From NCBI GenBank assembly GCA_000025185.1, contig CP001848.1, forward strand, positions 810,001-842,000: DNA of 32,000 nucleotides. The letters run 5' to 3'. The stretch is from Pirellula staleyi DSM 6068. GTDB taxonomy: Bacteria; Planctomycetota; Planctomycetia; Pirellulales; Pirellulaceae. The position numbers and the translations under genes were made by a program. The notes under the pieces were generated by a model, which did no database searches, had not been told where the DNA came from, and worked only from the letters and a program-made list of their open reading frames with translations. Below, piece by piece: positions 8,673 to 30,636 of this stretch (position 1 is the stretch's first letter; each line of letters begins with the position of its first letter).

Positions 8673-8710
8673 ACCGCAGCTGAGGATGACATTAACCGCT
8701 AGACGGCGCA

Positions 8711-8882
8711 GTAGGTCACGGTCCCCTCTCAGGGACCTGACAATGCCGAGCGCCACTATTCTGACAAACGCCAATTGCTTCCCATCTGCCGAATCGGTCG
8801 CAATAAACCGATCGAAGCATCAACCGTCAATCCAAAGGCTAGGCGAACTCCTGTCAGCTCCCTGAGAGGGGAACTGACCTAC
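8711..8882 (+). mobile_element. non-coding MITE/REPIN-like element, copy 1 (172 bp)
   Basis: ~31-bp terminal inverted repeats: GTAGGTCACGGTCCCCTCTCAGGGACCTGACA on the left, and TGTCAGCTCCCTGAGAGGGGAACTGACCTAC on the right. Alignable along its length with 10292-10478. No ORF. Confidence 0.65.
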
Positions 8883-9022
8883 GACACTGACCTACGCATC
8901 TCTCGATCGCCTTCCCTCTCGTCATTTCTCACACAATCCGAACAAACTGAGCCTGGCAATATGCTACTCTTCCGTAGCCAACTTCTGCCCCCTAACCTCT
9001 CCCCCCTGGCCCCTCCCTCGCC

Positions 9023-10210: not shown

Positions 10211-10213
10211 CCT

Positions 10214-10290
10214 GTAGGTCAGGTACCCCGCAGCTGACAACGCCGAGCGCTACTCTCCTAAATACGCTCCGTTGTTATTCTGCTCGCCCC
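10214..10290 (+). repeat. partial/hybrid REP-MITE head
   Basis: GTAGGTCAGGTACCCCGCAGCTGACAACGCCGAGCGCTACT shares the CTGACAACGCCGAGCGCTACT arm with the adjacent MITE. Its head matches the GTCAGGTAC hairpin family. Confidence 0.6.
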
Positions 10291-10291
10291 C

Positions 10292-10478
10292 GTAGGTCAC
10301 GGTCCCCTCTCAGGGACCTGACAACGCCGAGCGCTACTATTCTGTCAAACGCCGATTGCTTCCCATCCCCGAATCGCTCGCAAGCTACCCCATTGGGCGA
10401 CGCAGTTACGAAGCATCAACCATCGCTCAAAAAGCAATGCGAACTCCTGTCAGCTCCCTGTGAGGGGAACTGTCCTAC
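10292..10478 (+). mobile_element. non-coding MITE/REPIN-like element, copy 2 (187 bp)
   Basis: Same TIRs and internal sequence as 8711-8882, with an internal indel. Same orientation. Confidence 0.65.
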
Positions 10479-10525
10479 GCGAATGAACAATTACTACGGA
10501 GCAAACTTAGAGTACTTCAGCGTAC

Positions 10526-12908: not shown

Positions 12909-14102
12909 TCACAACTCGCCACTATTGACATTGCCTGTTACTCGATCCGTTTCCACCCAACCAATCTGGCAATTCGGCAGCTTCGCCTTTAGCGCCTTGG
13001 CATCGTCGAGTGTTAGTTCGTCGGTAATGCTGATCAAAAGACTCCTCAACTGCTCAGAACGCTCGAGATGTTGCAGCCCTTTCCCTGTAACCTTGGATTG
13101 CCTTATCTCCAACAGTGTCAAGCCTGGCAAACTAGCAATGGCTGCGAGGCCTTCATCGTTAATGTTAGTAGAGCTGGCGTCCACAAGGCGAAGATTCTGG
13201 AGCTCGCATAGTTTCGCGAAACCTGTGCCGTCGATGGGGCAGCCACTGACCAACAACACCTCAAGTTTCTCATTTCTTGACAGAAACGTCAGGCCTTCAT
13301 CGGAAATCGAATGAGCGTCGAGTCGCAATTGACGGAGACTACGAAACCTACCGATGGTCGGCATCGATTGGTCGGTAACACTCGTTCCCAACAGTTCGAG
13401 TTTTCTCAGTTTTGGCAAATTGACAAGCGACTTAAGCCCAGCATCCGTGATAGCGGCAACATAAATCTCCAACGTTGCAAGATTCTCTCGCTCTGCGAAA
13501 TGTTGAAGCCCTTCGTCGGTGATACTTGAACGAATTACTTGTAGGTGTTGAACCGATGGAATTCCGGCAACCGCTTTTAGGTGATCATCTTCGATCTCAG
13601 GTCCCCAAAGGGAGATACTAACCAGCTCACGACAACTAGCTAGCCGAGCAAGTCCAGCTGGCGAAATGCTCGTCTTCGAAATCGAAACCCCACGAAGCTG
13701 ATGAACCTTTATGAGCTCATCGATGCACTTATCAGTAAACGCTCGGCCATGCAGTGAAATATCTCTTATCCCATGAAGCTGATGAACACCCTCAATATCA
13801 TCGCCTGATGACGTCCCTCTAGCAGTTACCGTCAGTACATTGGCTCCAAAATTCTCGCCAAATAGATACCGAAGCCATCGCGGCTGATTAGATTGTTGGA
13901 TCGAACCGTCGATTACGTTCGGATACTCACTGTGCACTTGATAGTCGTAGTAAACCGTTCCACCAGCATTCACAATGCGATCAATTATCGGCTTTTCTCG
14001 TCGCGCACGAATAATATCCCGACCGAGCCAGGCAAAGAGCGCGGCGGCAATGGTGGTGACGATCAGGATCGTTCGCAGACCGAAGCGAAAATAGCGCGAC
14101 AT
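12909..14102 (-). CDS. leucine-rich repeat protein with N-terminal membrane anchor
   Basis: N-terminus MSRYFRFGLRTILIVTTIAAALFAWLG, then ~24-aa repeats of the form L..L..L.L....ITD.GL..L. Lower GC than neighbours. Confidence 0.85.
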   Translation of the reverse strand: MSRYFRFGLRTILIVTTIAAALFAWLGRDIIRARREKPIIDRIVNAGGTVYYDYQVHSEYPNVIDGSIQQSNQPRWLRYLFGENFGANVLTVTARGTSSGDDIEGVHQLHGIRDISLHGRAFTDKCIDELIKVHQLRGVSISKTSISPAGLARLASCRELVSISLWGPEIEDDHLKAVAGIPSVQHLQVIRSSITDEGLQHFAERENLATLEIYVAAITDAGLKSLVNLPKLRKLELLGTSVTDQSMPTIGRFRSLRQLRLDAHSISDEGLTFLSRNEKLEVLLVSGCPIDGTGFAKLCELQNLRLVDASSTNINDEGLAAIASLPGLTLLEIRQSKVTGKGLQHLERSEQLRSLLISITDELTLDDAKALKAKLPNCQIGWVETDRVTGNVNSGEL

Positions 14103-14144: not shown

Positions 14145-14235
14145 CAGTCAGGTACGGAGTACCTGACCTACTAATCTGGGTATCGATTTATGCTAGCCGG
14201 ATACGAACTTCACACTGCTGGGCAAGCCAGCAGTG
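14145..14235. repeat. composite hairpin repeats (GTCAGGTAC family + hairpin H, inverted orientation)
   Basis: GTCAGGTACGGAGTACCTGACCTAC ending at 14171. CACTGCTGGGCAAGCCAGCAGTG at 14213-14235. Confidence 0.8.
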
Positions 14236-16059: not shown

Positions 16060-16209
16060 GTAGGTCAGATGCCCGCAGGGAATCTGACGGGAGAGGTGCC
16101 GGCAAGCAGTGTTCAGTGTCAGGTACGGAGTACCTGACCTACTACTCCGCCTCGAATTCAATGTCATGTGTTTTGGGTGGCTACTAGCTGGCTTGTCCAG
16201 CAGTGAGAG
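16060..16209. repeat. cluster of three REP-like hairpin units
   Basis: GTAGGTCAGATGCCCGCAGGGAATCTGAC (16060-16088). GTCAGGTACGGAGTACCTGACCTAC (16118-16142). CTAGCTGGCTTGTCCAGCAGTG (16184-16205). Confidence 0.8.
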
Positions 16210-16264
16210 TCGCAGCGGAAGTTGGCATGAACCAATAGACGAAGTACAACACATCGACGCTGAT

Positions 16265-17216: not shown

Positions 17217-18548
17217 CTACGGGCGAGGAGAAGCGTCTACTTGGCTCGCTGTCATGTTGGCCTTCGTGAATTTGGTTAATTCATCGACCGACCAGAATCC
17301 ATCTTTGTCGAGATCAGTGGTTGCGAATATCCCCTGTTTATCAGCTGGAAGCTCGCTTTGCTCAATCTTTTGATCGCCATTTTTGTCGAGCGCCTCCAGC
17401 GTCAAGCGAACGAGCTGCGCCACCTCATCCTTCCCGAGAATCGCTTCGATCACCTGCACCGCCTGGGCGAGATTCGTCCCTCGATAGCGAACCACATGCG
17501 CCTCATCGAGCACAAAATAGGTCGGCAGCGACAAGGCCATCCATCGCTTTTGAAGCTTGCCGTCGCCATCCACCATGGTCGGCCAGTCGATCGATTGATC
17601 GGCAATGAACATTTTTAATGCCTTCTGATCTTCGTCGGCGCTAACTCCCAGCAGCTGAAACTTGCTCTCCTTATACTTCGCTTGCAACTGCTTCAGCTGC
17701 GGCACTGAACTGACACAAGGGGCGCACCATGTGGCCCAAAAATCGACCAGGACAACCTTGCCACGATAGTGACTGAGATCAACTTCCTTGTCACTCAACA
17801 GTTTTCCCGCTAGTCCGGTCGCGGTCCCTCCCAAGCGCAAGTGCTGCATCGAAAAGATGGCGCCGTCGGCCAGATCGCGAATGGACGCTCCACCAACGAC
17901 TCGCTCCCCATGCCGAGCTGCCAGCTCCTTGAATGCCGCGATCACTTCCCCCATCCACTTCCGATCGTCGAGCTGACGCAGCTGCTCGACAAGCGATTTT
18001 CCGAGACGCTCTTCATACACCCCCAGCCCGCCGGTTGAAGCCTTCATTTGATCCGACAAAACCAGCAGTTCGCGATCATGGAGCGCTTTGCTCAGCTCGA
18101 GCAGCACGCGCAGCTCCTGGGGCTGTTTTGCTCGCAGCAATCGGTCATAGAGCGAAGGTGTCCACTGGCGTGGCTGTTGGTTAAAGAGCCACTCGATCGT
18201 TCGCTCCGAGGTGCCGTGGTGCTCGGCAAGATACTCCGATGCCCGCAGCGATACAGCCGACGAGCGGGGAGAAGCGAGAACCCACTGCAGCACCGCTTCA
18301 GCCTCCTGGCTCTCGAGATCCTGCTCGGCCAAGCGCATTGCCTGCTCCGCTAATCGCTCCCGGGCCGACCAGTAGTCCTCCTGACTCTTGATTTGACGTT
18401 CCGCCTCCGCCAAGCGCCGCGCAGCTCCCGCAAGGGAATCACCCACCTCTTCCCCCCGCAGAGAACAGGTCGCGAGCGCCACCACGAGCACCAGCATCAC
18501 GCTCGCGACTAGACGTTTCCAGCAGGGCATAAAGCGTCCCTCCAGCAT
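17217..18548 (-). CDS. TlpA/ResA-like thiol-disulfide oxidoreductase with N-terminal helical region and C-terminal EF-hand pair
   Basis: VVLVDFWATWCAPCVSSVPQL (CxxC thioredoxin fold). EF-hand loops DKNGDQKIEQSEL and DLDKDGFWSVDEL. The start is placed at ATG 18548 (or 18530, MPCWKRL...) because the longer ORF overlaps the upstream gene. Confidence 0.85.
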   Translation of the reverse strand: MLEGRFMPCWKRLVASVMLVLVVALATCSLRGEEVGDSLAGAARRLAEAERQIKSQEDYWSARERLAEQAMRLAEQDLESQEAEAVLQWVLASPRSSAVSLRASEYLAEHHGTSERTIEWLFNQQPRQWTPSLYDRLLRAKQPQELRVLLELSKALHDRELLVLSDQMKASTGGLGVYEERLGKSLVEQLRQLDDRKWMGEVIAAFKELAARHGERVVGGASIRDLADGAIFSMQHLRLGGTATGLAGKLLSDKEVDLSHYRGKVVLVDFWATWCAPCVSSVPQLKQLQAKYKESKFQLLGVSADEDQKALKMFIADQSIDWPTMVDGDGKLQKRWMALSLPTYFVLDEAHVVRYRGTNLAQAVQVIEAILGKDEVAQLVRLTLEALDKNGDQKIEQSELPADKQGIFATTDLDKDGFWSVDELTKFTKANMTASQVDASPRP

Positions 18549-19711: not shown

Positions 19712-20209
19712 TTATGCTGTTCTTAGACGATGTTTTGGGCAATACGGATGCAGGGATTCCCCTTTTGCATCGAAAAAGCCTGCCTGATAGACGTGAATCA
19801 GGCCCTCGGTTAACTGAGCAAGCTGTCCACAAATCTGTTCACAAATACGGGCAAGTCTCGCTTGGCCCAATGAGCCCATGATCGGCGTGATCGTAATCGA
19901 TTGACACGTTTGGCGTAAATGCTCGATGACACTCTCGCCATTTGGTCCATTCCACGATCGCAGCTCTGCATCCCAACCTGCTCGATCCCAGTTGTAAAAC
20001 TCGTCGCCGGATACAAGTCGACCGACAAGAATCGCCGGGGCCGATTCATGCAAAAAACGCAAACCGCCATCTTGCCATCCACCGCGCTGCAGCAGTTGGC
20101 CGTCGTACGTTAACCCGGACACGCGAGGCCGGACACAATTCAGAAGTGCAGTTGGAGACGGAATTACGTCCAGTTTGCCGTGCACTACGTACCAATGCCG
20201 AATTTTCAC
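19712..20209 (-). CDS. hypothetical protein (island ORF 1)
   Basis: 165-aa ORF. No family recognised. Confidence 0.55.
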   Translation of the reverse strand: MKIRHWYVVHGKLDVIPSPTALLNCVRPRVSGLTYDGQLLQRGGWQDGGLRFLHESAPAILVGRLVSGDEFYNWDRAGWDAELRSWNGPNGESVIEHLRQTCQSITITPIMGSLGQARLARICEQICGQLAQLTEGLIHVYQAGFFDAKGESLHPYCPKHRLRTA

Positions 20210-20325
20210 ACCGACATCCTCCGTCTATTTGCCGAACGTAATGCCGATCAGTGGCCGAGCCGGCACGCGCCAACTCTCGAACCACAAGAAGCTTACCCGC
20301 CGGCTCGGTCCACTGCATCGGCGGG

Positions 20326-20700
20326 TTATGTTGTGCCGCCAGTGGGCCGCTCTTCAAAAAGCTTTGCCATGCGGTCCCAATACTCACTGCCTTCACCGCC
20401 GCACCTGCAATGGAAATTCGGGTCTTCAGTGAAGCCGTGCGGACCCCAACCTTCGCCTACAAAAGTCGGACACGCGAAGTGCTCAAAGACTGTTTCGAGG
20501 TGATGGCGCGACTTCGCGTTGGCGCAAAGTCCCCAGTCAGAGTTGAACGGTGCGAAGAACGAGCATCCGCCGCATTGCTTCTCGCCGTTCTCGCAAGCGA
20601 TCCGAAGCGCGGGTTCGTCAAGCCACTTTGACGCGTAGAGGTTCCGGCTCGCGTCGTTCGACCAAGTGTTGGTGATGATGATGTTGACGTTCATTGGCAC
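20326..20700 (-). CDS. Cys/His-rich hypothetical protein (island ORF 2)
   Basis: 124 aa. CGGCSFF...C...HH...H..C and HCRCGG suggest metal binding. No family recognised. Confidence 0.6.
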   Translation of the reverse strand: MPMNVNIIITNTWSNDASRNLYASKWLDEPALRIACENGEKQCGGCSFFAPFNSDWGLCANAKSRHHLETVFEHFACPTFVGEGWGPHGFTEDPNFHCRCGGEGSEYWDRMAKLFEERPTGGTT

Positions 20701-20741
20701 AACACAACAAAAGATAGACAGAATTCTGCATATTCAGTCGC

Positions 20742-20911
20742 ATTATTGATTCTGCATATTTCTGGCAGTCAATGTCAACAAAATACCTGGAGGGGATATT
20801 TATTGAGGAGGAGGCGGGAGCGGAGAGGCGCATGAAAAAGCCGTGCGGGACGTTTGGGGGTGTCGCGCACGGCGGGGCTTGGTTGTGTCTGGTATGGGGC
20901 AGCTGACCTAC
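20742..20911 (-). repeat. junction module copy A
   Basis: Minus strand reads GTAGGTCAGCTGCCCC..., then the terminator hairpin-TTTTTCATGCGCC, then GTATTTTGTTGACA (box at 20773-20786), then CAGAATCAATAAT. Homologous to 22248-22388, 25646-25775, 26288-26453 and 27661-27799. Confidence 0.85.
20835..20873 (-). terminator. rho-independent terminator downstream of the lipoprotein gene
   Basis: Minus strand: GCCGTGCGCGAC-loop-GTCCCGCACGGC (12-bp stem, one mismatch) followed by TTTTT. Confidence 0.75.
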
Positions 20912-20997
20912 ATCATGGGAGGCGGGCGGGAGCCTGCGTTATGGAACTCGATTGGCATCCGCAGCGGCTGATGACTCCAATGCTTGGCAGGTTCGGC

Positions 20998-21342
20998 CTA
21001 TCGCTTGGTCCCGTTCACAAAAGTCTCTCCGGATGACTTAACGACGATTCTGTCGCCGGGCTTTAACTCCCCACCATCGGCGCCGTCGATTGTCAGTTTC
21101 CCATTTTCGATCCGGAGGTGATGAGTTTTACCCCAGCTGAAGTCGTAGAACTCTTCTGTCACCACCTTACCTTCGCCGCGGGAATTGGAGTGCAGCGACG
21201 CGCCGCCCTGCGTGTTTTCAATCTCCACGAAATATCGACCACCGTCCAAATCGTACTTCGCGTAACTCGGCAGCGAAGTGGATGGACCACAACCCGTCGC
21301 CAAGAGGCACAAAAACAGACTTACCGATTTCACACGACCCAT
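20998..21342 (-). CDS. small lipoprotein (island ORF 3)
   Basis: MGRVKSVSLFLCLLATGCG lipobox. The start is placed at the internal ATG 21342 rather than 21372. Confidence 0.65.
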   Translation of the reverse strand: MGRVKSVSLFLCLLATGCGPSTSLPSYAKYDLDGGRYFVEIENTQGGASLHSNSRGEGKVVTEEFYDFSWGKTHHLRIENGKLTIDGADGGELKPGDRIVVKSSGETFVNGTKR

Positions 21343-21453
21343 CACGCAATCCTTATTGAGGCCCAAAGTCAACCATCACCCGGCACGCGCGAGCAAGGCC
21401 ACCCTGTGAAACATGCCCGATCACTTGCTCGGGCGTAGGGCTTGGTTATTCAG

Positions 21454-22164
21454 TCAGTTCGAATTGTGCAGGTCTTTGAACCAGAACGAGATTGCCCTTT
21501 CATTCAGCCCGCAATCGGGCTTGTAGTGACGGAGTGGATGCGACGAATCCTTGGCGTAGAAATGCGATGGCATCACGGACTCACGAATATCGTAGGTGAC
21601 CCAACCATCAAAATAGGACGCTGCGTCCAGCTGAAAGATTCCGGCAATCGCCAGTGCTCCTAGGAAATCCTCGCGTTCAAACTTATTGCTTGGGAACAGT
21701 CCTTGAATAAGCTTTTGCAACTCACCTAGTTTGGCTCCATTGCGGTTTTGGAGTCGATTCAGCGTTTCAGTAAGCATACCGAAATCTTCATCCTTGGGGA
21801 CTGGTTTTTCAGTACTAGCAAACTGCTGGAGCGTGGTTAGGGATGTTTCCAGATAGTATGCACGTCCAAGATTGCCAACCAGGAGCCTCCCGCTGACCTT
21901 GGTCTTTGACGGTGATGGTAGACCGCAAATGAAGCAACTAGCGTCCGGACCAGCCTGAAACACCTGCGTAGGTGCGTACTCATGACGCGGCAGCTGACGG
22001 CAGACCGCGTATGCCGGAAGCACGCCGCGCCAATCAAGCCTCCGGCTCGAAAGGCTGGCAATAAATGCACGCGCGACGTCTATGCGATCCAATGCTTCAG
22101 CGGCATCAACACACGCGTCAACCAATTCATTATGCGTCATTGATCGAGCACTGGAGTCGTTCAC
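21454..22164 (-). CDS. hypothetical protein (island ORF 4)
   Basis: 236-aa ORF. No family recognised. Confidence 0.6.
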   Translation of the reverse strand: MNDSSARSMTHNELVDACVDAAEALDRIDVARAFIASLSSRRLDWRGVLPAYAVCRQLPRHEYAPTQVFQAGPDASCFICGLPSPSKTKVSGRLLVGNLGRAYYLETSLTTLQQFASTEKPVPKDEDFGMLTETLNRLQNRNGAKLGELQKLIQGLFPSNKFEREDFLGALAIAGIFQLDAASYFDGWVTYDIRESVMPSHFYAKDSSHPLRHYKPDCGLNERAISFWFKDLHNSN

Positions 22165-22247
22165 GCTATAAACTCAGCCTGGATAACCAATCGTAGACGA
22201 AAACCTGCCTGATCCACGCCCATAAGTATTTGGCAGATCACCGAGGA

Positions 22248-22388
22248 TGTCAATTGATTCTGTTCTTGGCGCAGGTTGATGGAGCCAAGGAGCGGATTTG
22301 CTCGGCACATGAAAAAGCCGTGCGGGACAATAGGAGGCGTCGCACACGGCGGGGATGGTTGTTGGTAGGTTCGGGGCAGCTGACCTAC
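22248..22388 (-). repeat. junction module copy B (promoter-distal part rearranged)
   Basis: TGTCAATTGATTCTG...GGCACATGAAAAAGCCGTGCGGGAC...GTCGCACACGGCGGGGATGGTTGTTGGTAGGTTCGGGGCAGCTGACCTAC. Confidence 0.85.
22312..22350 (-). terminator. rho-independent terminator (module B)
   Basis: Same hairpin as module A, with one C-to-T change that gives a G-U pair. Followed by TTTTT on the minus strand. Confidence 0.7.
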
Positions 22389-22551
22389 TCAACTGACCGC
22401 TGATGCGACGCTCCTCGCTGGCAAATCGCCGCGCAGCTCCCTCCAGCGAAGCATCCAACCCCTGCCCCCACAACGGACAACTCACCAGCACCGCCCAAAC
22501 CACCAGGACAACGGTCGCAACCCACTTCTCCCAGAATGACATTAGCGACAA
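22389..22551 (-). pseudogene. 5' fragment of a paralog of the TlpA-like gene, truncated at the repeat boundary
   Basis: Translation WEKWVATVVLVVWAVLVSCPLWGQGLDASLEGAARRFASEERRISGQ aligns with WKRLVASVMLVLVVALATCSLRGEEVGDSLAGAARRLAEAERQIKSQ of 17217-18548. The two share the DNA string CGCCGCGCAGCTCCC. Similarity stops exactly at the GTAGGTCAG repeat end (22388). Confidence 0.55.
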
Positions 22552-22586
22552 TGCCTCCTAAAGGCCAAGCGACACAGCAAGTTGAA

Positions 22587-23303
22587 CTAACTCCGATCGA
22601 TCGCACTCCAACAACGACTGTTCAAGTTCGATTCAAAATAGGAGTCGATCACTTCCAACAGCGAACCTATCTCACAGAACGCTCCGTCTTCATGGCAAAA
22701 CGAAAACACCTTACTTCCTTCGGCCTTTCGGCGACGACCTTCAGCAAGCAGGTAGTCACCTGTATCCGTTCGGTAAAATGCCAGAGCATCTGCTAATTCA
22801 AGCGGCGATTCATCGTCTACCAAATCGAACGACCCAGCGTTGAAGTCCAAATCCCGCGATCGTACAAACTGGGAGGTGAGCAACGCATCATGGCTCTCTA
22901 GAATCCCATCCGTCGCGCGATAGACTTCGCTCAGGGGATAGGGGAGCAAATCAGCCCCGCCACCTGTTGGCAATCGAAAATTTCGCTGCCGCTTCACCTT
23001 GCCAGCGACGCCGCAAATCGTCACCTCTGCTTGTACTCGGCCAGCGAACTCTGCTCGATGCACGGTCAGTCCAAATCTGCCATCGTCGCACATCGCCCTG
23101 AGCCAACGTTGAAGTGAGTCTAGCTTGACGCTATCCGCAAGCTTGGCGATATAACTGGCCGGATCGGTGAGACATTCCCTATATCGCTCATCAACCAAAC
23201 TCTGAAACGGCTCTGGAATCGCAGCCACATCAATACCAGGAGGCACGAAAAGAGATTCGTCGCCATTAGCGTTGCGGAAAGTCTTGCAGCTGGGTTGGTT
23301 CAT
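22587..23303 (-). CDS. hypothetical protein with SUKH/SMI1-KNR4-like C-terminal half (island ORF 5)
   Basis: LPYPLSEVYRATDGI ... FYRTDTGDYLLAE ... KVFSFCHEDGAF ... LLEVIDSYF resembles SUKH motifs. Unverified without a profile search. Confidence 0.6.
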   Translation of the reverse strand: MNQPSCKTFRNANGDESLFVPPGIDVAAIPEPFQSLVDERYRECLTDPASYIAKLADSVKLDSLQRWLRAMCDDGRFGLTVHRAEFAGRVQAEVTICGVAGKVKRQRNFRLPTGGGADLLPYPLSEVYRATDGILESHDALLTSQFVRSRDLDFNAGSFDLVDDESPLELADALAFYRTDTGDYLLAEGRRRKAEGSKVFSFCHEDGAFCEIGSLLEVIDSYFESNLNSRCWSAIDRS

Positions 23304-23408
23304 TTCAGATACCAGATCACATTATTCGACCGATCTCTACATCTACCACTTCACCAATCGTTCTATATCCCCAACCCAGCGATATCAACAACTGGCAATC
23401 AACGACAG

Positions 23409-23807
23409 CTACCTTGAGTCGAATATCCACTGGCGGCAAGCTGCGACGCAGGCAGGACAGACGATCGTCCAAAACCCCTGGCCAAAAGGAAATTGTTCCT
23501 CGCGAACTGGACCGAAAGATAGAAAGCCGTTACCGGGAATCGCCTGACCATCTTCCAGCGGCAAATGGTGGACATCGCACCAAAGAAGTGCGTCCTGGAT
23601 TGGGCCTAAGTCTTGAGGCACTCCCGCGTACTGTTGGCTGAATTGATCCCAAAGCTGCTTCTGCCAGAAGCGGAGATCCGCGCGACGTTGCCGGTACGAA
23701 AGGGATGACTCTGACTGTTTATCAGCGCGCAACTGCAATGCAAAACGCCGGGCCTTGGTTGGTCCAGCATAGTCCCTAAACAAAGTGCGAAGTTCTTCTG
23801 CGGTCAT
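23409..23807 (-). CDS. hypothetical protein (island ORF 6)
   Basis: 132-aa ORF. No family recognised. Confidence 0.55.
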   Translation of the reverse strand: MTAEELRTLFRDYAGPTKARRFALQLRADKQSESSLSYRQRRADLRFWQKQLWDQFSQQYAGVPQDLGPIQDALLWCDVHHLPLEDGQAIPGNGFLSFGPVREEQFPFGQGFWTIVCPACVAACRQWIFDSR

Positions 23808-23904
23808 ATTGGGTAGGTGAAGTTGGCATTACCGAGTGAAACGCGTCAACCCGGCCATTTCCGGGTCGCGTTCAACCGTAAGTTATCGGGTGTTGTTTCG
23901 CAGC

Positions 23905-24633
23905 CTACGCAGTGGCAGTGGCAACTTCGCCGGAGTCGCAGTCGAGCACGATGACTCCTTCCTCCTTATCGTCAAGCTGTGCCACCATATTCCCAGCCCG
24001 ATCCCAAACGGCCGAACCCCCTGCGCATTCCGCCCCATCGAGCAGACCAAGGCAATTCGAGAGGAGTGTCGGCATACTCAATTCAGTGGCGATTTGCGAA
24101 AGCCTGTGGCTGGCTTGCTTCACGCCTTCAGCCGTTTTCGCTGCACTGGCCACATAAACTGTGGCACCTGCTTGATGCGCCCCAGTCGCATGCTGTGGCA
24201 CCGACAGTTCAAAACAAATTGCCAGTTCTACCGGTGGCTCGTCCAGCAGGAGACTCGGCGAACCTCTTCCAGGCTGAAAGAAAGGAACCTCGTCGGGATG
24301 GAGATAGCTCTTGGAATACACGAGAGGCGGGAGGACTGGGCGAAATAGAAAGGTTGAGATACAAGGGAGGTCTCCGGTGTCGAGCGGAGCCCCGACGCCA
24401 AGAGAGATACCGCTTGCATTGCAGATCGCCTGCAGAGGCTGCAAGCGCGTGTCGCTCGGCAAACACGCGAATTCGCCAGCCAGTTTGGGTTCATACCCGG
24501 TGAGCGACAGCTCGGGAAAGATGACGAGCTGAGCACCCAGACTTGCGGCAGCTGCTGTCAAAGCAAGATGTCGATCGATATTGCGCCCCACCGCCCCGAC
24601 AACAGGCCTCAATTGCACAACGGCCAGCTTCAC
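23905..24633 (-). CDS. carbon-nitrogen hydrolase (nitrilase superfamily) (island ORF 7)
   Basis: MKLAVVQLRPVVG...; candidate E-K-C triad contexts LVIFPELSLTGY, YSKSYLHPDE, LAICFELS. Confidence 0.85.
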   Translation of the reverse strand: MKLAVVQLRPVVGAVGRNIDRHLALTAAAASLGAQLVIFPELSLTGYEPKLAGEFACLPSDTRLQPLQAICNASGISLGVGAPLDTGDLPCISTFLFRPVLPPLVYSKSYLHPDEVPFFQPGRGSPSLLLDEPPVELAICFELSVPQHATGAHQAGATVYVASAAKTAEGVKQASHRLSQIATELSMPTLLSNCLGLLDGAECAGGSAVWDRAGNMVAQLDDKEEGVIVLDCDSGEVATATA

Positions 24634-24681
24634 AGTTCACCTAATTCCTGGCGGCAGAACGGATCGACGTTCAGCGATTGG

Positions 24682-25089
24682 TTATACGACTGGCCGCGCC
24701 CCCGTGAAAAGCCCCTTCAGCTTCTCAAGCTGTTGCACAAGACCAGTGACAGGCAGATCGCCCCCGAAGCAGGCAAGCGACGATTGGAGGTTGGTTGCAA
24801 GGTAGTTCAGTGGCACAGCATCGCCAAACGATTCGATTCGCACACGAGCACCTTCCAGCAGTTTCAGAAACGCACTCTCACGGGCCTGATCGCCGTCGAA
24901 GTACGCATCAAAATCCTTACCGATATAGACACCTGGTCCGACCCAGTCCCATCCGCAAGCGAATGCTGCAAGCTCGGAATTGTCGCAGGCCTCAGCCTCT
25001 GAAAGCAAGAAGTGACGGATTACCCACAAATCCATGTCGTGGATTATCGCATGACGGTCGCGGTACTTAATGATTTCGTGGCCCACCAC
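24682..25089 (-). CDS. hypothetical protein (island ORF 8)
   Basis: 135-aa ORF. No family recognised. Confidence 0.55.
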   Translation of the reverse strand: MVGHEIIKYRDRHAIIHDMDLWVIRHFLLSEAEACDNSELAAFACGWDWVGPGVYIGKDFDAYFDGDQARESAFLKLLEGARVRIESFGDAVPLNYLATNLQSSLACFGGDLPVTGLVQQLEKLKGLFTGARPVV

Positions 25090-25181
25090 CCCTCCAGCCT
25101 AATAACGAAACAACTTCACCCGCGAAGCCGATCACTTTGCAAACACCCAACATCACTGCCATGGTCTCATGCAACGACTTA

Positions 25182-25604
25182 CTAGATGGCTCGATTGCGA
25201 GTTTCGTCTCGATGGAGGTTTGCCAAACGAACGATACTGGATATTACGCCTTCGTAGTTCGCTCGACTGAACGCAAACTCTGCTGAAGGCGCGATGCTGG
25301 AGCGACTATCCGAAAAGTCCTTGAAAGATACGTGATCGGCAGCATAAATCACGCGACATTTTGCGTGGCCACATCCATATTCTCCACACTTACATACCGC
25401 GATCAACCGTATGTCGGCTTCGACTGGAATCTCGCCAGGATAGGGTGGAATAGTCGGCAGATCGGCATCGATGTATCGCTGAGGAATAAATGTCCCTGGC
25501 GCGACGACGAGTTCTCCAAGAGGTCGCTCGTCAACCTGAAGTTCAAATGCCACATCACCACAATCATCCACGACTCGAAAGCTAAGTCGATTCAATATTG
25601 TCAC
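25182..25604 (-). CDS. hypothetical protein with CKCGEYGCGH motif (island ORF 9)
   Basis: The listed ORF 25182-25967 runs through junction module E. It is trimmed here to GTG 25604 (VTILNRLSF...). The start is uncertain. Confidence 0.45.
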   Translation of the reverse strand: MTILNRLSFRVVDDCGDVAFELQVDERPLGELVVAPGTFIPQRYIDADLPTIPPYPGEIPVEADIRLIAVCKCGEYGCGHAKCRVIYAADHVSFKDFSDSRSSIAPSAEFAFSRANYEGVISSIVRLANLHRDETRNRAI

Positions 25605-25645
25605 CCAACAAATAATTGGCAGAGTTCTATAGATCCCACTGCAAT

Positions 25646-25775
25646 ATTGATTCTGCAGATTGCAGAGGGCTGTCAACAAAATACCTTCTTGGGCAGCTTT
25701 GTTTCCCAAAAATACAGGATTGCACAGCACATGAAAGATCCGTGCGCGACGAATGCGTATTGTGAAGCGCGGCAG
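25646..25775 (-). repeat. junction module copy E (degenerate hairpin)
   Basis: ATTGATTCTGCAG...TGTCAACAAAATAC (25671-25684)...GATTGCACAGCACATGAAAGATCCGTGCGCGAC aligns with module C. The terminator stem is partly eroded. Confidence 0.75.
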
Positions 25776-25827
25776 GAATTGGCTCTTGTCGGTAAGGGGG
25801 GACTTACATCCAGAGCTTGGGCGTGTG

Positions 25828-26229
25828 TCAATCGTCCGTAATGATCGTTCCCTTCTCCCAGAACTCCTCGAGCTTCCGCCAGTACCGCAACGAGACGGGG
25901 CGTAGAAATTCAAGGAACTGGTCTGGCTTGGTTTGGGAATGCAGGGATGTGTTCTGAAGACTTTCAAGGATTCCTGTCGTTGCCGCTTCGCGAACGTACT
26001 TATCGCCCTCGATATGCAAGCGTTCGATCATTTCAAATGCTGCTTGGAGCCGTAGTCGGTCCGCCGTTTCAAGTAGTGAAATCACATATTGAGCGAAACC
26101 ACCGAGTGCAAGGTAGTAGGGTATTTCCGATTCGTCTTTCCACTCGGCGACGAATGCGTCATAGTCCGCCGCAAATGCCGGGCACGATGAAACAATGGCC
26201 TGCATCATCTCTGCTCGGTCGATCATCAC
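25828..26229 (-). CDS. all-helical hypothetical protein, immunity-protein-like (island ORF 10)
   Basis: 133 aa. ...EIPYYLALGGFAQYVISLL...IEGDKYVREAATTGILESLQN resembles small helical-repeat proteins seen in immunity gene arrays. This is from memory and is not verified. Confidence 0.6.
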   Translation of the reverse strand: MMIDRAEMMQAIVSSCPAFAADYDAFVAEWKDESEIPYYLALGGFAQYVISLLETADRLRLQAAFEMIERLHIEGDKYVREAATTGILESLQNTSLHSQTKPDQFLEFLRPVSLRYWRKLEEFWEKGTIITDD

Positions 26230-26287
26230 GCTTCCGCCGCCCTACACCAAACAACAACTAGAAACACAAGCCTACCCATTCCACCGC

Positions 26288-26453
26288 ATTGATTATTCTG
26301 CCGCTCGTGATGGTGTGTCAACAAAATACGCTTTTGGGACACTTTGCTCCGTGAAAAGCAAGATTGCATCGGCGCATGAAAAAGCCGTGCGGGACGATTG
26401 GGTCGTCGCGAACAGCGGGGATGGTTGTTGGTAGGTTCGGGCTAGTGACCTAC
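26288..26453 (-). repeat. junction module copy C
   Basis: ATTGATTATTCTG...TGTCAACAAAATAC...GGCGCATGAAAAAGCCGTGCGGGACGATTGGGTCGTCGCGAACAGCGGGGATGGTTGTTGGTAGGTTCGGGCTAGTGACCTAC. Confidence 0.85.
26379..26415 (-). terminator. rho-independent terminator (module C, stem weakened by two substitutions)
   Basis: Hairpin plus TTTTT on the minus strand, 112 nt past the stop of 26527-27651. Confidence 0.6.
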
Positions 26454-26526
26454 AAGGTTGGGGAGAGCTGATATTAAACGCAGCAATTCACAGCGAGAAC
26501 ACGTCGTGCATCGCTCAGTCAAGTCC

Positions 26527-27651
26527 CTACTTGGCGACTGGAACGAAAGATCGATACACCGCAATCGGGTGGACTGTCACATTCGGATATCGTGAGTAAC
26601 GCATGAATGCTTCAAGATTGTCCATCGCTGAGAAGATCGCCCTGAACCCACGCTCAAACGCCACCTGCTCAGCCGATTCATCTGCTGACTCTTGAAACTC
26701 TGCCATTGGATCAAAAGCGGTTTCTGTCGACAAATCTGGAATCGACGTTAACAGTCCAAAGACTGTTAACGGTACATTCGGACGATTGCCGTATCCATAG
26801 AGTAGATGCTCTGGATCCTGATCTACAAAGCAGTCTCGCTTGAGATTACACAACACTTGAAAAGATGGGCAGGAAGGGAATGGATACACGCGGAAGTTGA
26901 TTCTGGAGGCCATAAAGGTGTTAATCCAGAGCTTGATACCGTTGAGGAGCCACTTTTCCACACCAAGGATTTGAGGGGCCGTAAGCGATTGGAGCGTCGC
27001 CTCCATAGATTTTAGTTGCTGGGTTTTCACTGACCTCTTGTTACGGTCACGTTCTCCATTTGCTTGCAATCGCATTGTTTCAATATTGTTCTGAAGCTCC
27101 TTATACTCAGGCGATTGCTTAACCGACTGCATGCTGCATTCAGAAATAAAATTGACTATTTCATTGAACTTCTCGCTGATCCCCAGGATTCGAGGATAGT
27201 CCTCGATAACGCTAGCCCCCGAAGCCTTTACGTATGGGTGAAAACAGATTGCTTCGCGAATTGCTGCTGGATTGGATTCTTGGTGATCCAAAGTCGTCAT
27301 GAGATCCACTACTAAACCAGCATCAGTTAGTGCGTTGTCAACTGAATTCAGAACGTCATGGTGAAGAATTTTTGATTCCAAGACGGATCTTTTTCCCGTG
27401 TAGTCAACTCCAAGATTTGCCTCCGCCACTTTAGGGATTCCAAACGACACAGCTGCCTTTTGGCCGCGGCCCACGTCATCAGAAATGGAAACTTTCTCGC
27501 GCAACCCTCCCTCGAACTGACTCCAAATAGATGCTGCTTTTTCAAAGTCTAAATAGAGCAGATCGCGTATGTCTTGGTGCAGCATTTGATTGCATATAAC
27601 GAATAGAAGGGAGAATTTAGCGGATCCAAGCCCGGGAATTATTCTATACAT
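26527..27651 (-). CDS. 374-aa hypothetical protein, AT-rich (island ORF 11)
   Basis: Long uninterrupted ORF with protein-like composition. No motif recognised. An alternative start is MLHQDIRD... 23 codons downstream. Confidence 0.7.
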   Translation of the reverse strand: MYRIIPGLGSAKFSLLFVICNQMLHQDIRDLLYLDFEKAASIWSQFEGGLREKVSISDDVGRGQKAAVSFGIPKVAEANLGVDYTGKRSVLESKILHHDVLNSVDNALTDAGLVVDLMTTLDHQESNPAAIREAICFHPYVKASGASVIEDYPRILGISEKFNEIVNFISECSMQSVKQSPEYKELQNNIETMRLQANGERDRNKRSVKTQQLKSMEATLQSLTAPQILGVEKWLLNGIKLWINTFMASRINFRVYPFPSCPSFQVLCNLKRDCFVDQDPEHLLYGYGNRPNVPLTVFGLLTSIPDLSTETAFDPMAEFQESADESAEQVAFERGFRAIFSAMDNLEAFMRYSRYPNVTVHPIAVYRSFVPVAK

Positions 27652-27660
27652 CCTGGGGGG

Positions 27661-27799
27661 GTCAACGAAATACTACTGAGGAGAGTTTTTTGTTTAGGAA
27701 AGACGCAATTTGCTCGGCGCATGAAAAAGCCGTGCGGGACGATTGGGTCGTCGCGCACGGCGGGGATGGTTGTTGGTAGGTTCGGGCTAGATAACCTAC
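27661..27799 (-). repeat. junction module copy D
   Basis: GTCAACGAAATAC...GGCGCATGAAAAAGCCGTGCGGGACGATTGGGTCGTCGCGCACGGCGGGGATGGTTGTTGGTAGGTTCGGGCTAGATAACCTAC. Confidence 0.85.
27724..27761 (-). terminator. rho-independent terminator downstream of ppdK (module D)
   Basis: GCCGTGCGCGAC-loop-GTCCCGCACGGC followed by TTTTT on the minus strand. Confidence 0.75.
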
Positions 27800-27824
27800 T
27801 TTATGGGTAGCAGGCGGCAGGGGA

Positions 27825-27924
27825 CACTGCTGGACAAGCCAGCAGTGCCACCCACAATTCGTCAGTGCATCCAAAAGTTGGTGTTTGTCGTTGATTGTTG
27901 TCAGGTACGGGGTACCTGACCTAC
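27825..27924. repeat. composite hairpin repeats (hairpin H + GTCAGGTAC family)
   Basis: CACTGCTGGACAAGCCAGCAGTGCCACCCA (27825-27853). GTCAGGTACGGGGTACCTGACCTAC (27900-27924). Confidence 0.8.
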
Positions 27925-27954
27925 GTCATTGCGGCAGGCCCATTAACAAGCAGC

Positions 27955-30636
27955 CTACTTTTTGCTGTTCTTGAGAGCAGCTTGGGCGGCGGCGAGGCGG
28001 GCGATTGGCACGCGGAATGGCGAGCAGCTGACGTAGTCGAGTCCTGCGCGGTGGCAGAATTCGATCGAAGCTGGATCACCACCATGTTCGCCGCAAATGC
28101 CGATCTTGAGGTCCTTCTTCGTGCTGCGACCCTTCTTCACGCCGATTTCGACCAGCTGACCGACACCCGATTGATCGAGCGTTTGGAACGGGTCGGCGAG
28201 GAACAGATCTTTCTTCATGTAGTCGGGCAAGAAGCTGTTGATGTCGTCGCGGCTGATGCCGAACGTCATCTGCGTCAAGTCGTTCGTACCGAAGCTGAAG
28301 AAGTCGGCGTACTCGGCCACCTTGTCGGCGGTGAGAGCAGCACGGGGGATTTCGATCATCGTGCCGACGAGCACGTCGAGCGTACCCTTGAACTTGTGTT
28401 CGGCCTTCACGGTTTCGATCGTCTCTTCGGTCAGCTTGCGGAGCATGGCGAGCTCGGCAGCGGTGCCGACGAGTGGGATCATGATCTCGGGACGAGCGTC
28501 GATCTTCTTCCCCTTGCAAACGATCGCCGCTTCGATGATCGCCCGGACCTGCATCTCGAGGATTTCAGGATAGGTGACGCTCAAACGGCAACCACGGTGA
28601 CCGAGCATCGGGTTGGATTCGTGCAGCTGAGCTACGCGAGCCTTGATGACGGCGGGCTTCACGCCCATTTGCTTGGCGAGTTCTTCTTGGGTCTTCGCGT
28701 CGTGTGGCACGAATTCGTGAAGTGGTGGATCGAGAAGGCGAATGGTGACAGGCAAGCCCTTCATGGCGGTGAAGATGCCGGTGAAGTCTTCGCGCTGAAT
28801 CGGCAGCAGCTTGGCGAGGGCCGCCTTGCGTGCGTCGAGTTCGGTGGCGAGGATCATTTCGCGCATCGCAGCGATGCGGTCTTCACCGAAGAACATATGT
28901 TCGGTGCGGCAGAGGCCAATGCCCTCAGCGCCGAATTCGCGAGCACGGCTCGAGTCTTCAGGGCTGTCGGCGTTGGTGCGAATGTTGAGGGTGCGGTATT
29001 TGTCCGACCACTTCATCACGGTGGCAAAATCGCCGCCGAGTTTGGGCTCTTGCGTCGCCATGGCGCCGGCAAACACTTCGCCCGTGGTGCCGTTGATGGT
29101 GATCACATCGCCAGCGCCGTAGGTCTTGCCTTTGATCATCATCTTCTTGGCTTTTTCGTCGATCGTCATTTCGCCTGCGCCGACGACGCAGCAACGACCC
29201 CAACCGCGAGCCACCACAGCAGCGTGGCTGGTCATACCACCGGTGCTGGTGAGAATACCAGCGGCCGAGTGCATACCGGCGACGTCTTCGGGGCTGGTTT
29301 CTTTACGGCAGAGAATCACCTTCTCGCCCGAGGCAGCACGTTCGACAGCTTCTTCAGCGGTGAAGGCGAGCTTGCCCACAGCGGCACCTGGCGAAGCAGG
29401 GAGACCGATGGTGAGAACCTTGCCACCTTCGCGAGCCGTTTCAAGGGCCTTGGTGTCGAGGCTGGGGAGCAGGAGCTGCGACAAGTCGCCAGCGGGGATG
29501 CGCATCACACCTTGTTCTTCGGTGATGAGCTTCTCTTTGACCATGTCGACGGCCATCTTCACAGCGGCGGTGCCGGTGCGCTTGCCGTTGCGGGTTTGCA
29601 GCATGAAGAGAACACCCTTTTCGATGGTGAACTCGATGTCCTGCATGTCTTTGTAGTGCTCTTCGAGGATCTTTTTGATCTCGAGCAGCTGCTTGTGGAT
29701 CGCCTTGTTCCACTTGGGCATTTCGGCCACAGGCTGAGGCGTACGAATACCAGCAACCACGTCTTCGCCTTGGGCGTTGATGAGGAATTCGCCGAAGAAT
29801 TCATTCTTGCCTGTGTTCGGGTCGCGGGTGAAAGCGACACCGGTGCCGCTGTCGTCGCCCATGTTGCCATAGACCATCGACTGTACGTTCACAGCGGTGC
29901 CGAGCAGGCCGCGAATGTTTTCGACTTCGCGATACTTCACTGCCTTATCGCCCATCCAGCTCTTGAACACAGCACCGATGGCTGCTTCGAGCTGTGCATA
30001 GGGATCTTGAGGGAAGTCGTTGCCGGTGTACTTGCGATAGACTTCTTTGTAGGCCTTGCAGAGTTCGATGAGGCCTTCGGCTGGCACATCGGTATCGAGC
30101 TTCGCTTTGTACTTCTTCTTGATGCCGTCAAAGATGTGTTCGTAGTGCTCGTGATCGACACCCATCACAACGTCGCCGAACATGTTGATGAGGCGGCGGT
30201 AGGCATCGTAGGCAAAGCGTTCGTTGCCGGTGGCGTTGGCCAGACCAGCGGTCGAAACGTCGTTGAGACCGAGGTTCAGAATGGTGTTCATCATGCCCGG
30301 CATCGAGAGCTTAGCGCCCGAGCGAACACTGACGAGCAACGGATTCTTGTCGTCGCCGAACTTCTTGCCGAGCTCTTTTTCGAGCGAGCCGACATGCTTG
30401 CGAACTTCGTCCATCAAACCATCGGGCATCTTGCGTCCGCTCTTGTAGTAGAGGTCGCAAACTTCGGTGGTGATGGTGAAGCCGGGAGGAACAGGCAGAC
30501 CGATCGACGTCATGTCGGCGAGGTTGGCACCTTTGCCGCCGAGGAGGTCTTTGCTCAGTCCTTTGCCTTCGGACTTGCTCTTGCTGAAGTAGTAACACAT
30601 CTTGCCGCTTTTGGCGGCAGGCTTCACTTTGGCCAT
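27955..30636 (-). CDS. ppdK: pyruvate, phosphate dikinase
   Basis: LLGGKGANLADM, phospho-His motif GGMTSHAAVVARG, C-terminal GICGEHGGDP. Length ~890 aa. The start may be Met13 (MCYYFSK...). Confidence 0.95.
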   Translation of the reverse strand: MAKVKPAAKSGKMCYYFSKSKSEGKGLSKDLLGGKGANLADMTSIGLPVPPGFTITTEVCDLYYKSGRKMPDGLMDEVRKHVGSLEKELGKKFGDDKNPLLVSVRSGAKLSMPGMMNTILNLGLNDVSTAGLANATGNERFAYDAYRRLINMFGDVVMGVDHEHYEHIFDGIKKKYKAKLDTDVPAEGLIELCKAYKEVYRKYTGNDFPQDPYAQLEAAIGAVFKSWMGDKAVKYREVENIRGLLGTAVNVQSMVYGNMGDDSGTGVAFTRDPNTGKNEFFGEFLINAQGEDVVAGIRTPQPVAEMPKWNKAIHKQLLEIKKILEEHYKDMQDIEFTIEKGVLFMLQTRNGKRTGTAAVKMAVDMVKEKLITEEQGVMRIPAGDLSQLLLPSLDTKALETAREGGKVLTIGLPASPGAAVGKLAFTAEEAVERAASGEKVILCRKETSPEDVAGMHSAAGILTSTGGMTSHAAVVARGWGRCCVVGAGEMTIDEKAKKMMIKGKTYGAGDVITINGTTGEVFAGAMATQEPKLGGDFATVMKWSDKYRTLNIRTNADSPEDSSRAREFGAEGIGLCRTEHMFFGEDRIAAMREMILATELDARKAALAKLLPIQREDFTGIFTAMKGLPVTIRLLDPPLHEFVPHDAKTQEELAKQMGVKPAVIKARVAQLHESNPMLGHRGCRLSVTYPEILEMQVRAIIEAAIVCKGKKIDARPEIMIPLVGTAAELAMLRKLTEETIETVKAEHKFKGTLDVLVGTMIEIPRAALTADKVAEYADFFSFGTNDLTQMTFGISRDDINSFLPDYMKKDLFLADPFQTLDQSGVGQLVEIGVKKGRSTKKDLKIGICGEHGGDPASIEFCHRAGLDYVSCSPFRVPIARLAAAQAALKNSKK

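Follow-up and report, generated by a model that had tools for sequence, protein, structure and literature searches.

Repeated head and tail sequences at the cassette boundaries of a strain-variable gene island between ppdK and a redoxin gene in Pirellula staleyi

How does a row of unrelated genes come to carry the same intergenic sequence at boundary after boundary, and is that sequence linked to the building of the row? The question is raised by the region between ppdK and a thioredoxin-fold (redoxin) gene in Pirellula staleyi DSM 6068, which lies within the window analysed here (the whole stretch of 32,000 nt, positions 810,001 to 842,000 of contig CP001848.1). Five repeats, termed junctions A to E, separate the genes of this island, and related copies occur in three further versions of it; a complete junction consists of a terminator-like head, following one gene, and a promoter-like tail, preceding the next. 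Cassettes have been gained, lost and reordered between the four versions, with crossovers placed inside the heads, and on balance it appears probable that the ppdK–redoxin region is a strain-variable array of self-contained cassettes (tail, open reading frames (ORFs) and head), the homologous ends of which act as recombination substrates.

Anatomy of the head and tail

All five repeats lie where a preliminary description had placed them, on the minus strand and co-oriented with the genes. None of the motif counts that mark them in the window is expected by chance: the core GTCCCGCACGGCTTTTTCATG occurs five times at ≤3 mismatches (0 expected), GTATTTTGTTGACA four times at ≤2 mismatches (0.04 expected) and CCTACCAACAACCATCCCC three times (0.01 expected). 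Five-way alignment and profile searches give a junction length of ~190–230 nt and resolve two separable halves, the head and the tail. The ~130–170 bp initially assigned to the module was right as to place and too short in extent, with the conserved block stretching ~40–70 nt further, to ~5–40 nt before the next start codon; matches to a tail hidden Markov model (HMM) in the window run from 20824 to 20703, 22301 to 22177, 25725 to 25599, 26368 to 26246 and 27712 to 27591.

Heads usually open with a GTAG-tagged palindrome, a degenerate form of a repetitive extragenic palindromic (REP) element, which is followed by CAACAACCATCCCC, a GC-rich hairpin, a run of five T residues (T5) and CATGCGCC. 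The tail begins ~10 nt past CATGCGCC with a CAATCC motif and harbours the GTATTTTGTTGACA box, then, 13–18 nt later, an invariant (C)AGAAT(AAT) box and, ~20 nt further downstream, a second, CAGA(A/C)TTCTG-like box. A conserved leader of ~55–90 nt ends just before the start codon, and has a TTTGTT motif at its end, ~10 nt upstream of that codon. From the ppdK side to the redoxin side, the five junctions are as follows.

27591..27799, minus strand: junction E, between ppdK and the DUF6414 cassette (alignment, tail HMM, fold). Degenerate REP GTAGGTTA..ACCTAC at ~27776-27799, arms at 27750-27761 and 27729-27740, T5 at 27724-27728; TTGACC at 27660-27665, AATAAT at 27638-27643, leader to the start codon at 27585.
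26246..26453, minus strand: junction D, between the DUF6414 and DUF7674 cassettes (repeat family D1, tail HMM, fold). REP GTAGGTCA at 26446-26453, arms at 26405-26416 and 26384-26395, T5 at 26379-26383; TTGACA at 26316-26321, CAGAATAAT at 26292-26300, leader to the ATG at 26226.
25599..25781, minus strand: junction C, between the DUF7674 cassette and a five-gene block (degenerate head, intact tail). No REP and no 5′ arm; remnant of the 3′ arm and T-run at 25730-25750, TTGACA at 25671-25676, CAGAAT at 25650-25655, probable downstream TTG start at 25595.
22177..22388, minus strand: junction B, between a redoxin-gene fragment and a 228-aa gene (alignment, tail HMM, fold). REP GTAGGTCA at 22381-22388, arms at 22339-22350 and 22317-22328, T5 at 22312-22316, TTGACA at 22248-22253, AATACT at 22225-22230.
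20703..20911, minus strand: junction A, between a 114-aa lipoprotein gene and a 122-aa gene (alignment, tail HMM, fold). REP GTAGGTCA at 20904-20911, arms at 20862-20873 and 20840-20851, T5 at 20835-20839; TTGACA at 20773-20778, CAGAAT at 20749-20754, start ATG at 20694.

The hairpin first attributed to every copy is present in A, B, D and E, with a stem of 12–14 pairs and one C.C mismatch, but copy C lacks the 5′ arm and forms no stable hairpin (−9.2 kcal/mol, z = +1.5). RNA folds of the other four reach −19.7 (A), −18.9 (B), −15.0 (D) and −23.9 kcal/mol (E), with z-scores of −1.9 to −4.7 (E being the lowest at −4.7), and each is directly followed by U5. These four, and not C, therefore present a GC-rich stem–loop with an immediate T-run on the transcribed strand, the standard intrinsic-terminator shape for minus-strand genes, and are putative terminators; the ppdK transcript would end at the first of them. 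The heads of D and E are 97 % identical across 77 nt. The module hairpins were not picked up by a simple terminator scanner, probably due to their internal mismatch and long loop. Whilst stem and T-run are kept, the loop is free to vary in sequence and length: the spacer between the 12-nt arms measures 9–11 nt and reads ACCCCCAAAC, GCCTCCTATT, GACCCAATC or GCCCCACAATC. A core site of the lox, dif or FRT type was rejected on account of these differences between copies. An antisense small ORF (ATGAAAAAGCCGTGCGGGAC.., 'MKKPCGT') was also discarded, as the 9–11 nt loop indels shift its frame between copies and leave no conserved peptide, as was a known RNA family, since Rfam gave no match in the entire window at gathering thresholds, nor any in 20300-28000 at E ≤ 1.

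On the tail side, a generic promoter scan of 10 kb returned five sigma-70-like sites, four of which fall at the equivalent module position in A, B, D and E, with scores of 11/12 for D and 10/12 for E, B and A. Copies B and D had both been said to lack parts of the promoter-side boxes; B indeed has no GTATTTTG, though it keeps TTGACA, whilst D has both boxes intact, and variant promoter-side boxes are seen in E as well as in B. Variable spacing between TTGACA and the downstream box had likewise been counted as a weakness of the promoter idea. The spacing does vary (13–18 nt), but the worry is largely resolved by a −10-like hexamer 16–18 nt after TTGACA in four window copies, with a weak one only in copy C. 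Across the 21 junctions of the four island versions the AGAAT box was located by regular expression in 19, and nearly all have a plausible xAxAxT hexamer 16–18 nt from TTGACA; this −10-like hexamer falls inside the CAGAATAAT box and is formed by CAGAAT or, three bases further, by AATAAT/AATACT. In the full set of 21, invariant columns are limited to TTGAC, AAT within CAGAAT and two single bases; in the 12 non-orthologous junctions, the fully conserved columns are the TTGAC/CAGAAT tail boxes and part of the 3′ arm of the hairpin. The tail thus has the −35 TTGACA and TATAAT-like −10 of a sigma-70-type promoter at the usual distance (C having a weak −10), and is a predicted promoter followed by a leader, in which the CAGA(A/C)TTCTG-like box is possibly an operator. 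The pairing proposed at the outset is accordingly present, with a canonical terminator shape and a sigma-70-like promoter shape, and both conserved elements, tail and head, are candidates for use as promoter and terminator parts in the genetics of Planctomycetes.

The REP element, in contrast, did not hold up as an integral part of the unit. Its sequence differs between junctions and between genomes, and it is missing from copy C; it is an add-on to the head and not its core. Within the window GTAGGTCA occurs 12 times (0.37 expected) at the head of palindromes such as GTAGGTCAGGTACCCCGTACCTGAC, which, with its variants, is a GTAG-tagged, extragenic, many-copy imperfect palindrome of 20–40 nt, as expected of a REP; the module heads carry the degenerate form GTAGGTCAGCTGCCCCGAACCTAC. 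Ordinary members of this class lie immediately beside junction E.

27820..27924, minus strand: REP-type palindromes between ppdK and head E, belonging to window-wide families (D2, D7, D13).
27900-27924, minus strand: REP-type palindrome GTAGGTCAGGTACCCCGTACCTGAC.
27820-27852, minus strand: REP-type palindrome GGCACTGCTGG..CCAGCAGTG.

Elsewhere in the window, the palindrome GGCACTGCTGGCTTGTCCAGCAGTG recurs at 8536, 8645, 14212, 16181 and 27823, and repeat families D3 and D8 (78–83 nt, 85–92 % identity), which include GTAGGTCA-type palindromes, occur at 8500-8900 and 10210-10490, where they bracket a Metallophos gene (9023-10210).

Gain, loss and reordering of cassettes

Three further versions of the island were compared with that of the window. 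L003 (GCA_002483025.1) was found by exact PpdK look-up and has flanks ~97 % identical to those of the window, whilst L007 and L008, two metagenome assemblies close to each other (from samples SRR33531174 and SRR33531176), were found as cluster members of two cassette proteins and have a ppdK that is 91 % identical. In all four versions ppdK and the AhpC/redoxin gene bracket a co-oriented array of small genes, the content and order of which differ. The gene orders (in which '/' marks a junction with head and/or tail) and the features of the window are given below.

Window: ppdK / DUF6414 / DUF7674 / 137aa-135aa-CN_hydrolase-132aa-238aa / 228aa-114aa / 122aa-165aa / ... redoxin
L003: ppdK / DUF7674 / 228aa-114aa / 120aa-131aa / 95aa / DMP19 / ... 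redoxin
L007: ppdK / 369aa / leucine-rich repeat (LRR)-127aa / 95aa-94aa / DUF7674 / 171aa-246aa-84aa / 137aa-134aa-CN_hydrolase-DinB-238aa ... redoxin
L008: the L007 order, except that DUF7674 is absent and the first two cassettes are different ones

27955..30636, minus strand: ppdK, conserved left flank of the island in 4/4 versions.
26527..27585, minus strand: DUF6414 cassette ORF, 352 aa; part of a unit, absent from L003, that also includes the E tail and D head.
25828..26226, minus strand: DUF7674 cassette ORF, 132 aa; a D-type tail, the ORF and a degenerate C-type head.
22587..25595, minus strand: multi-gene cassette core without a junction module inside it, encoding 137 aa, 135 aa, CN_hydrolase (242 aa), 132 aa and 238 aa.
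22393..22579, minus strand: truncated redoxin copy, comprising the upstream region and first ~150 nt of an L007-type redoxin gene.
20998..22140, minus strand: two-gene cassette core of 228 aa and a 114-aa lipoprotein, also present in L003 between B-type and A-type junctions.
19712..20694, minus strand: core downstream of the A tail, with a 122-aa ORF (weak DUF3027-like match) and a 165-aa ORF.
17217..18530, minus strand: thioredoxin-fold/AhpC-TSA (redoxin) gene, conserved right flank of the island in 4/4 versions.

The same heads and tails are used in all four versions, and 21/21 junctions lie inside the island at stop/start boundaries, co-oriented with the genes, in line with what had been proposed from the window alone. 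Copies in random orientation or position, the outcome named beforehand as refuting, were not seen: HMM matches are confined to island junctions on the gene strand, and pattern and HMM searches found no head or tail in the flanks, across ~96 kb of the four genomes. Exact scans with the core 21-mer in GTDB representative genomes, JGI metagenomes and IMG/VR gave chance coding matches only (the GTDB scan returning no Pirellula match, not even the window, which was either masked or absent as a genome), and plasmid and phage collections gave no repeat match. A dispersed repeat was accordingly rejected, the exact-core matches all being chance ones inside coding sequence. The G+C content of the island is 48–57 %, against 57–61 % in its flanks.

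Three-way alignments resolve two clean cassette indels. In the first, the window has an E tail, DUF6414 and a D head between the E head and the D tail; the corresponding place in L003 is taken by one head leading into the D tail. In the second, L007 has a D-type tail, DUF7674 and a C-type head, where L008 has one hybrid head, the left part of which corresponds to the upstream and the right part to the downstream head of L007, with the switch falling within ~12 nt at the 3′ arm/T-run. Both indels have their crossover in the hairpin/T-run of the head, and it is therefore tail, ORF(s) and head that move together, and not the junction, which is simply where one cassette ends (3′) and the next begins (5′). 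In three array positions (window, L003 and L007) the DUF7674 unit is found with its own tail and degenerate head, and it is absent from L008. Units of two to five genes also exist, with multi-gene cores devoid of internal junctions; in the five-gene core, the first three genes recur in L007/L008, whereas other genes stand there in place of the final two. The genes that follow the A-type tail in the window are unrelated to those behind the same tail in L003, and the tails of junctions N2 (L007) and O2 (L008) are common up to the TTTGTT box and diverge thereafter. The suspicion that the repeats are tied to the building of the island is thereby strengthened, since cassette content and order differ in the four versions, with breakpoints at or inside the modules.

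The same alignments bear on the earlier view of the combined head and tail as a portable insulator, and on a related explanation in which the junction is a small non-autonomous mobile element, akin to a miniature inverted-repeat transposable element (MITE), a REPIN or a Correia element, that carries a terminator and an outward promoter and inserts between genes. Such an element would account for heads that begin with a REP of a REP-associated tyrosine transposase (RAYT) family, and for the fairly sharp outer borders of the junction, which has REP/CAACAACC on one side and the TTTGTT box ~10 nt before the start codon on the other. Terminal inverted repeats clearly above shuffles were, however, found in 0/18 junctions when head starts were compared with tail ends, and a suspected CAACAAC/GTTGTTG match between the two did not exceed shuffles either, leading to rejection of a MITE. 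Heads and tails are, moreover, found alone (tails without a head at L003 16841-16965 and L007 12619-12742; a head without a tail at L003 13490-13540), no polymorphism of junction presence and absence between the same two genes was seen in the four versions, no copies were detected outside the island in the ~96 kb HMM search or the exact-core scans, and the unit seen to come and go is tail, ORF and head. A mobile junction is therefore very improbable, and the insulator idea fails in that form.

Movement between lineages is indicated by the cargo itself. The block 137aa-135aa-CN_hydrolase (window 25724-23889, L007 12619-14453) shows 95.9 % nucleotide identity between the window and L007, against 91.4 % for ppdK and 76 % for the redoxin gene; with cargo more similar than the core flanks, cassettes have therefore moved between lineages more recently than their hosts diverged. 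The truncated redoxin copy at 22393-22579 is 89 % identical to L007 17349-17534 and only 68 % to the window's own redoxin gene, and it stops exactly where the REP of the B head begins, so that it resembles a scar left by the fusion of two arrays.

We infer the part played by recombination, and its enzymology, from these arrangements. In the proposed mechanism, recombination within the directly oriented heads or tails would delete, duplicate, insert or swap cassettes with their orientation kept, insertion proceeding via a circular or an incoming linear intermediate; RecA-type homologous recombination would be the most probable agent, together with some microhomology-based or REP-associated events. 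Each cassette would stay separately expressed and insulated wherever it lands. Direct repeats at both cassette ends account for orientation-preserving deletion, insertion and swapping that is confined to the locus, as seen. The heads of E and D have perfect tracts of 31 and 42 nt in common. Similarity type also switches outside the hairpin: at the linker past CATGCGCC (N1 of L007 and O1 of L008), at the tail end, and at the CAGAATAAT box for the 95-aa cassette (L003 16416, L007 8826). Several crossover points, along with the 31/42-nt tracts, would favour homologous recombination or gene conversion, accompanied by other events.

An alternative in which the repeats play no role in the dynamics is that an ancestral cassette was duplicated in tandem and its ORFs later replaced; tails would then be alike as the promoter/operator of one regulator, heads as good terminators, and change would be driven by recombination in the ppdK and redoxin flanks. 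Conservation does peak exactly at the promoter boxes, with the second CAGA(A/C)TTCTG-like box ~20 nt downstream, the conserved flanks would permit replacement of the whole island, and the genes past CN_hydrolase differ between window and L007 in the absence of a junction there. Yet common descent of this kind sits poorly with two cassette indels bounded precisely by heads, with a DUF7674 cassette that keeps its own tail and head in three positions, and with heads and tails that are mosaic in type. Paralogous junctions also have a non-functional spacer in common, and the heads of E and D are almost the same; shared spacer and head identity alike point to recent exchange or duplication at the junctions themselves. 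We regard this alternative as unlikely.

A number of observations nonetheless weigh against cassette exchange through homologous ends. Such exchange gives no account of how unrelated ORFs first gained a common tail and head. Heads N4 and N5, which surround the DUF7674 cassette of L007, are perfectly identical over only ~10 nt, which is short of what RecA-dependent recombination needs, except in the case of an old event. Covariation in the hairpin equals shuffled values, with changes being one-sided and the copies too alike, and the 3′ arm with T5CATG is much better conserved than the 5′ arm, which drifts without compensation; this could mean that a sequence-specific site, instead of a structure, is maintained. 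Confinement to the island, including the lack of a copy elsewhere in the P. staleyi genome, is moreover deduced from the ~96 kb searched and an exact-core scan in which the window was apparently masked.

Comparison with integrons and other cassette arrays

Accessory-gene arrays with repeated junctions have so far been mainly integrons (attC sites with IntI) and the immunity arrays of Bacteroidales, and the island behaves outwardly as both do without their defining parts. Like sedentary chromosomal integrons and attC-site clusters without an integron integrase (CALIN), it comprises co-oriented, mostly small, unrelated and uncharacterised ORFs at a fixed chromosomal site, has a repeated hairpin-forming element after each cassette, and varies in content and order between close relatives, with one ORF and one repeat deleted or inserted together. 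As a strain-variable array of co-oriented small ORFs with a repeat after each, it corresponds to an integron in this respect. Cassettes of integrons, which are transcribed from Pc, 'rarely contain promoters' (Cury et al. 2016, PMC4889954). Those of the island, unlike integron cassettes, carry their own promoter-like tail and T-run terminator-like head, with a TTGACA/−10-like pair before every cassette and a hairpin with T5 after it, and some are units of two to five genes.

The anatomy of the repeat differs as well. The island lacks the R″/R′ (AAC..GTT) boxes, extrahelical bases and long imperfect palindrome of attC sites: none of the window copies has a GTT ≤40 nt 3′ of its hairpin, and there is no complementarity between the flanks CAACAACCATCCCC and TTTTTCATGCGCC. 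In folds of the bottom-strand DNA, neither extrahelical bases nor an unpaired spacer of the attC type was seen, but a plain 12–14 bp hairpin only, with one symmetric C.C (G.G) mismatch and a loop of 5–10 nt. No Phage_integrase match, as expected of an integron integrase, was obtained among window ORFs or the called genes of L003, L007 and L008. An attC/CALIN identity was therefore rejected on anatomy, with an array in Rhodopirellula sp. P2 as the contrast. There, the cargo family DUF7674 does occur in an attC-like array, and the junctions show attC-like folds, namely long AAC/GTT-closed stems (boxes GGCGAAC/GTTCGCC) that have bulged bases and end in a large loop; none of the Pirellula head and tail motifs was found in it. 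In CP118225.1 (9885-11525 and 12359-19750), the short array holding the DUF7674 homologue lies directly beside three tandem copies of a gene pair encoding an IS91-type Y2 transposase and a tyrosine integrase.

It is, nevertheless, conceivable that the head hairpin functions as an analogue of attC, cut and rejoined beside the stem (at about T5/CATG) by an unlinked recombinase, such that excised circles are reinserted at any head. A Y1/HUH enzyme such as a REP-associated RAYT, or a tyrosine recombinase encoded elsewhere, would be the candidates. Both clean indel crossovers do fall in the 3′ arm/T-run, the 3′ arm with T5CATG is the best-conserved stretch whilst the 5′ arm drifts uncompensated, cassettes are strictly co-oriented, the heads flanking the L007/L008 indel are too dissimilar for RecA, in L003 a RAYT gene flanked by REPs of the same GTAGGTCA family is 3 kb away from the island, and an attC-like array of Rhodopirellula sp. 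P2 has a DUF7674 homologue among its cassettes. Set against this are the lack of R″/R′ boxes, of extrahelical-base architecture and of pairing beyond the 12–14 bp stem, and the fact that neither the window nor the L003, L007 and L008 flanks yielded a recombinase other than the L003 RAYT, which is absent from the window. Similarity switches are also seen at tail boxes and linkers instead of falling on one point, copies have loops/spacers of different length and sequence, which is incompatible with a lox/dif-type core, and the 31–42 nt perfect tracts of the E and D heads make ordinary homologous recombination sufficient there. An integron analogue is, on this evidence, unlikely. Decidedly unlikely, too, is the fuller proposal of an independently evolved Pirellula gene-capture platform, in which the site would be the terminator hairpin of the cassette, the enzyme an unlinked single-strand or site-specific recombinase (possibly a REP-associated Y1), and a standard promoter-leader would be given to each cassette. 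If it is true that an unlinked enzyme acts on the hairpin, a new capture system would be at hand.

The RAYT of L003 is encoded at 20877-21410 (Y1_Tnp match, E = 2.4e-9, 177 aa) and has a GTAGGTCAG..CTGAC REP on either side, the two (20768(+) and 21588(−)) being in inverted orientation. A Y1 gene between inverted GTAG-tagged REPs is the REP/RAYT signature (PMC2817692, PMC3733652), and L003 displays just this arrangement. In the corresponding part of the window (16060-16249, against L003 20768-21588), the Y1 gene and left REP are absent, whilst the right REP is kept and other REP units occupy the site. The junctions resemble REPs and bacterial interspersed mosaic elements (BIMEs) associated with RAYTs in that most heads have as their first ~25 nt a GTAG-tagged palindrome, and in that heads, as is typical of REPs, are sited just past stop codons. 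They differ in that only the outer, variable portion of a head is REP; the hairpin, promoter boxes and leader are not, and these are confined to the island and not dispersed.

The rAID-1 arrays of Bacteroidales are defined by a conserved XerD-family recombinase at the array start (Ross et al. 2019, bioRxiv 10.1101/471110), and form long co-oriented rows of small genes with intergenic repeats 'reminiscent of integrons', skewed G+C and variable content (10.1101/471110). The island is similar in its repetitive intergenic sequence, variable co-oriented small genes and skewed G+C, and homologues of its cargo families adjoin Imm63 and SMI1_KNR4 immunity genes in other genomes. It differs in phylum and in repeat sequence, and in having no XerD-family recombinase in the window or in L003, L007 and L008.

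Hypervariable chromosomal sites can also be swapped by homologous recombination on conserved flanks, as with the 'minimal mobile elements' of Neisseria and additive flexible genomic islands. Common to these and the island are fixed flanks (here ppdK and redoxin) around differing accessory genes, the lack of a dedicated mobility gene, and cargo that is more similar than the flanks. In the island, by contrast, homology is also repeated between cassettes, each of which has its own expression signals. Since there is homology between every cassette, single cassettes, and not just whole islands, would therefore be exchangeable. The island is a cassette array with standardised ends, a variant of the cassette-array theme and not a member of any defined family. 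If junction homology alone drives the shuffling, it would offer a simple recombinase-free route to an 'expression-ready' cassette array, and a tractable case for how new cassettes form, a question that is also posed by integrons.

Cargo and neighbouring features

Cassette families in the window comprise DUF6414, DUF7674, CN_hydrolase and a weak DUF3027, whilst most cassette proteins have no family match; DMP19, DinB_2, DUF4274, GyrI-like and LRR families are added by the other versions. PADLOC gave no match for the cargo, and NCBIfam returned weak CN_hydrolase matches only. In other genomes, homologues of the DUF7674 and 122-aa proteins adjoin Imm63 and SMI1_KNR4 genes, which hints at a conflict or immunity theme for the cargo; no Imm or SUKH family was matched among the window ORFs, and these were seen only beside homologues elsewhere. 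Two such contexts (L011 527-8055 and L013 8001-9210) are co-oriented rows of small genes in which DUF7674 or 122-aa homologues occur with Imm63 and SMI1_KNR4/SUKH. Junction repeats were found in neither of two other DUF7674 contexts inspected for them (L009 and L011).

Outside the island, the window contains at 2252-4274 (+) a 216-aa sigma70_r4/HTH ORF followed by a 498-aa ORF with Terminase_6N/6C matches (large terminase), and, after the terminase ORF, a 731-aa ORF without a family at 4293-6488 (−). This region, ~16 kb from the island, may be a remnant of a prophage or gene-transfer agent. Nearer to the island, an LRR gene at 12909-14102 (−) lies in a 1-kb stretch with a G+C of 0.486, against ~0.60 around it, with REPs at 14147-14176, and may be another acquired gene.

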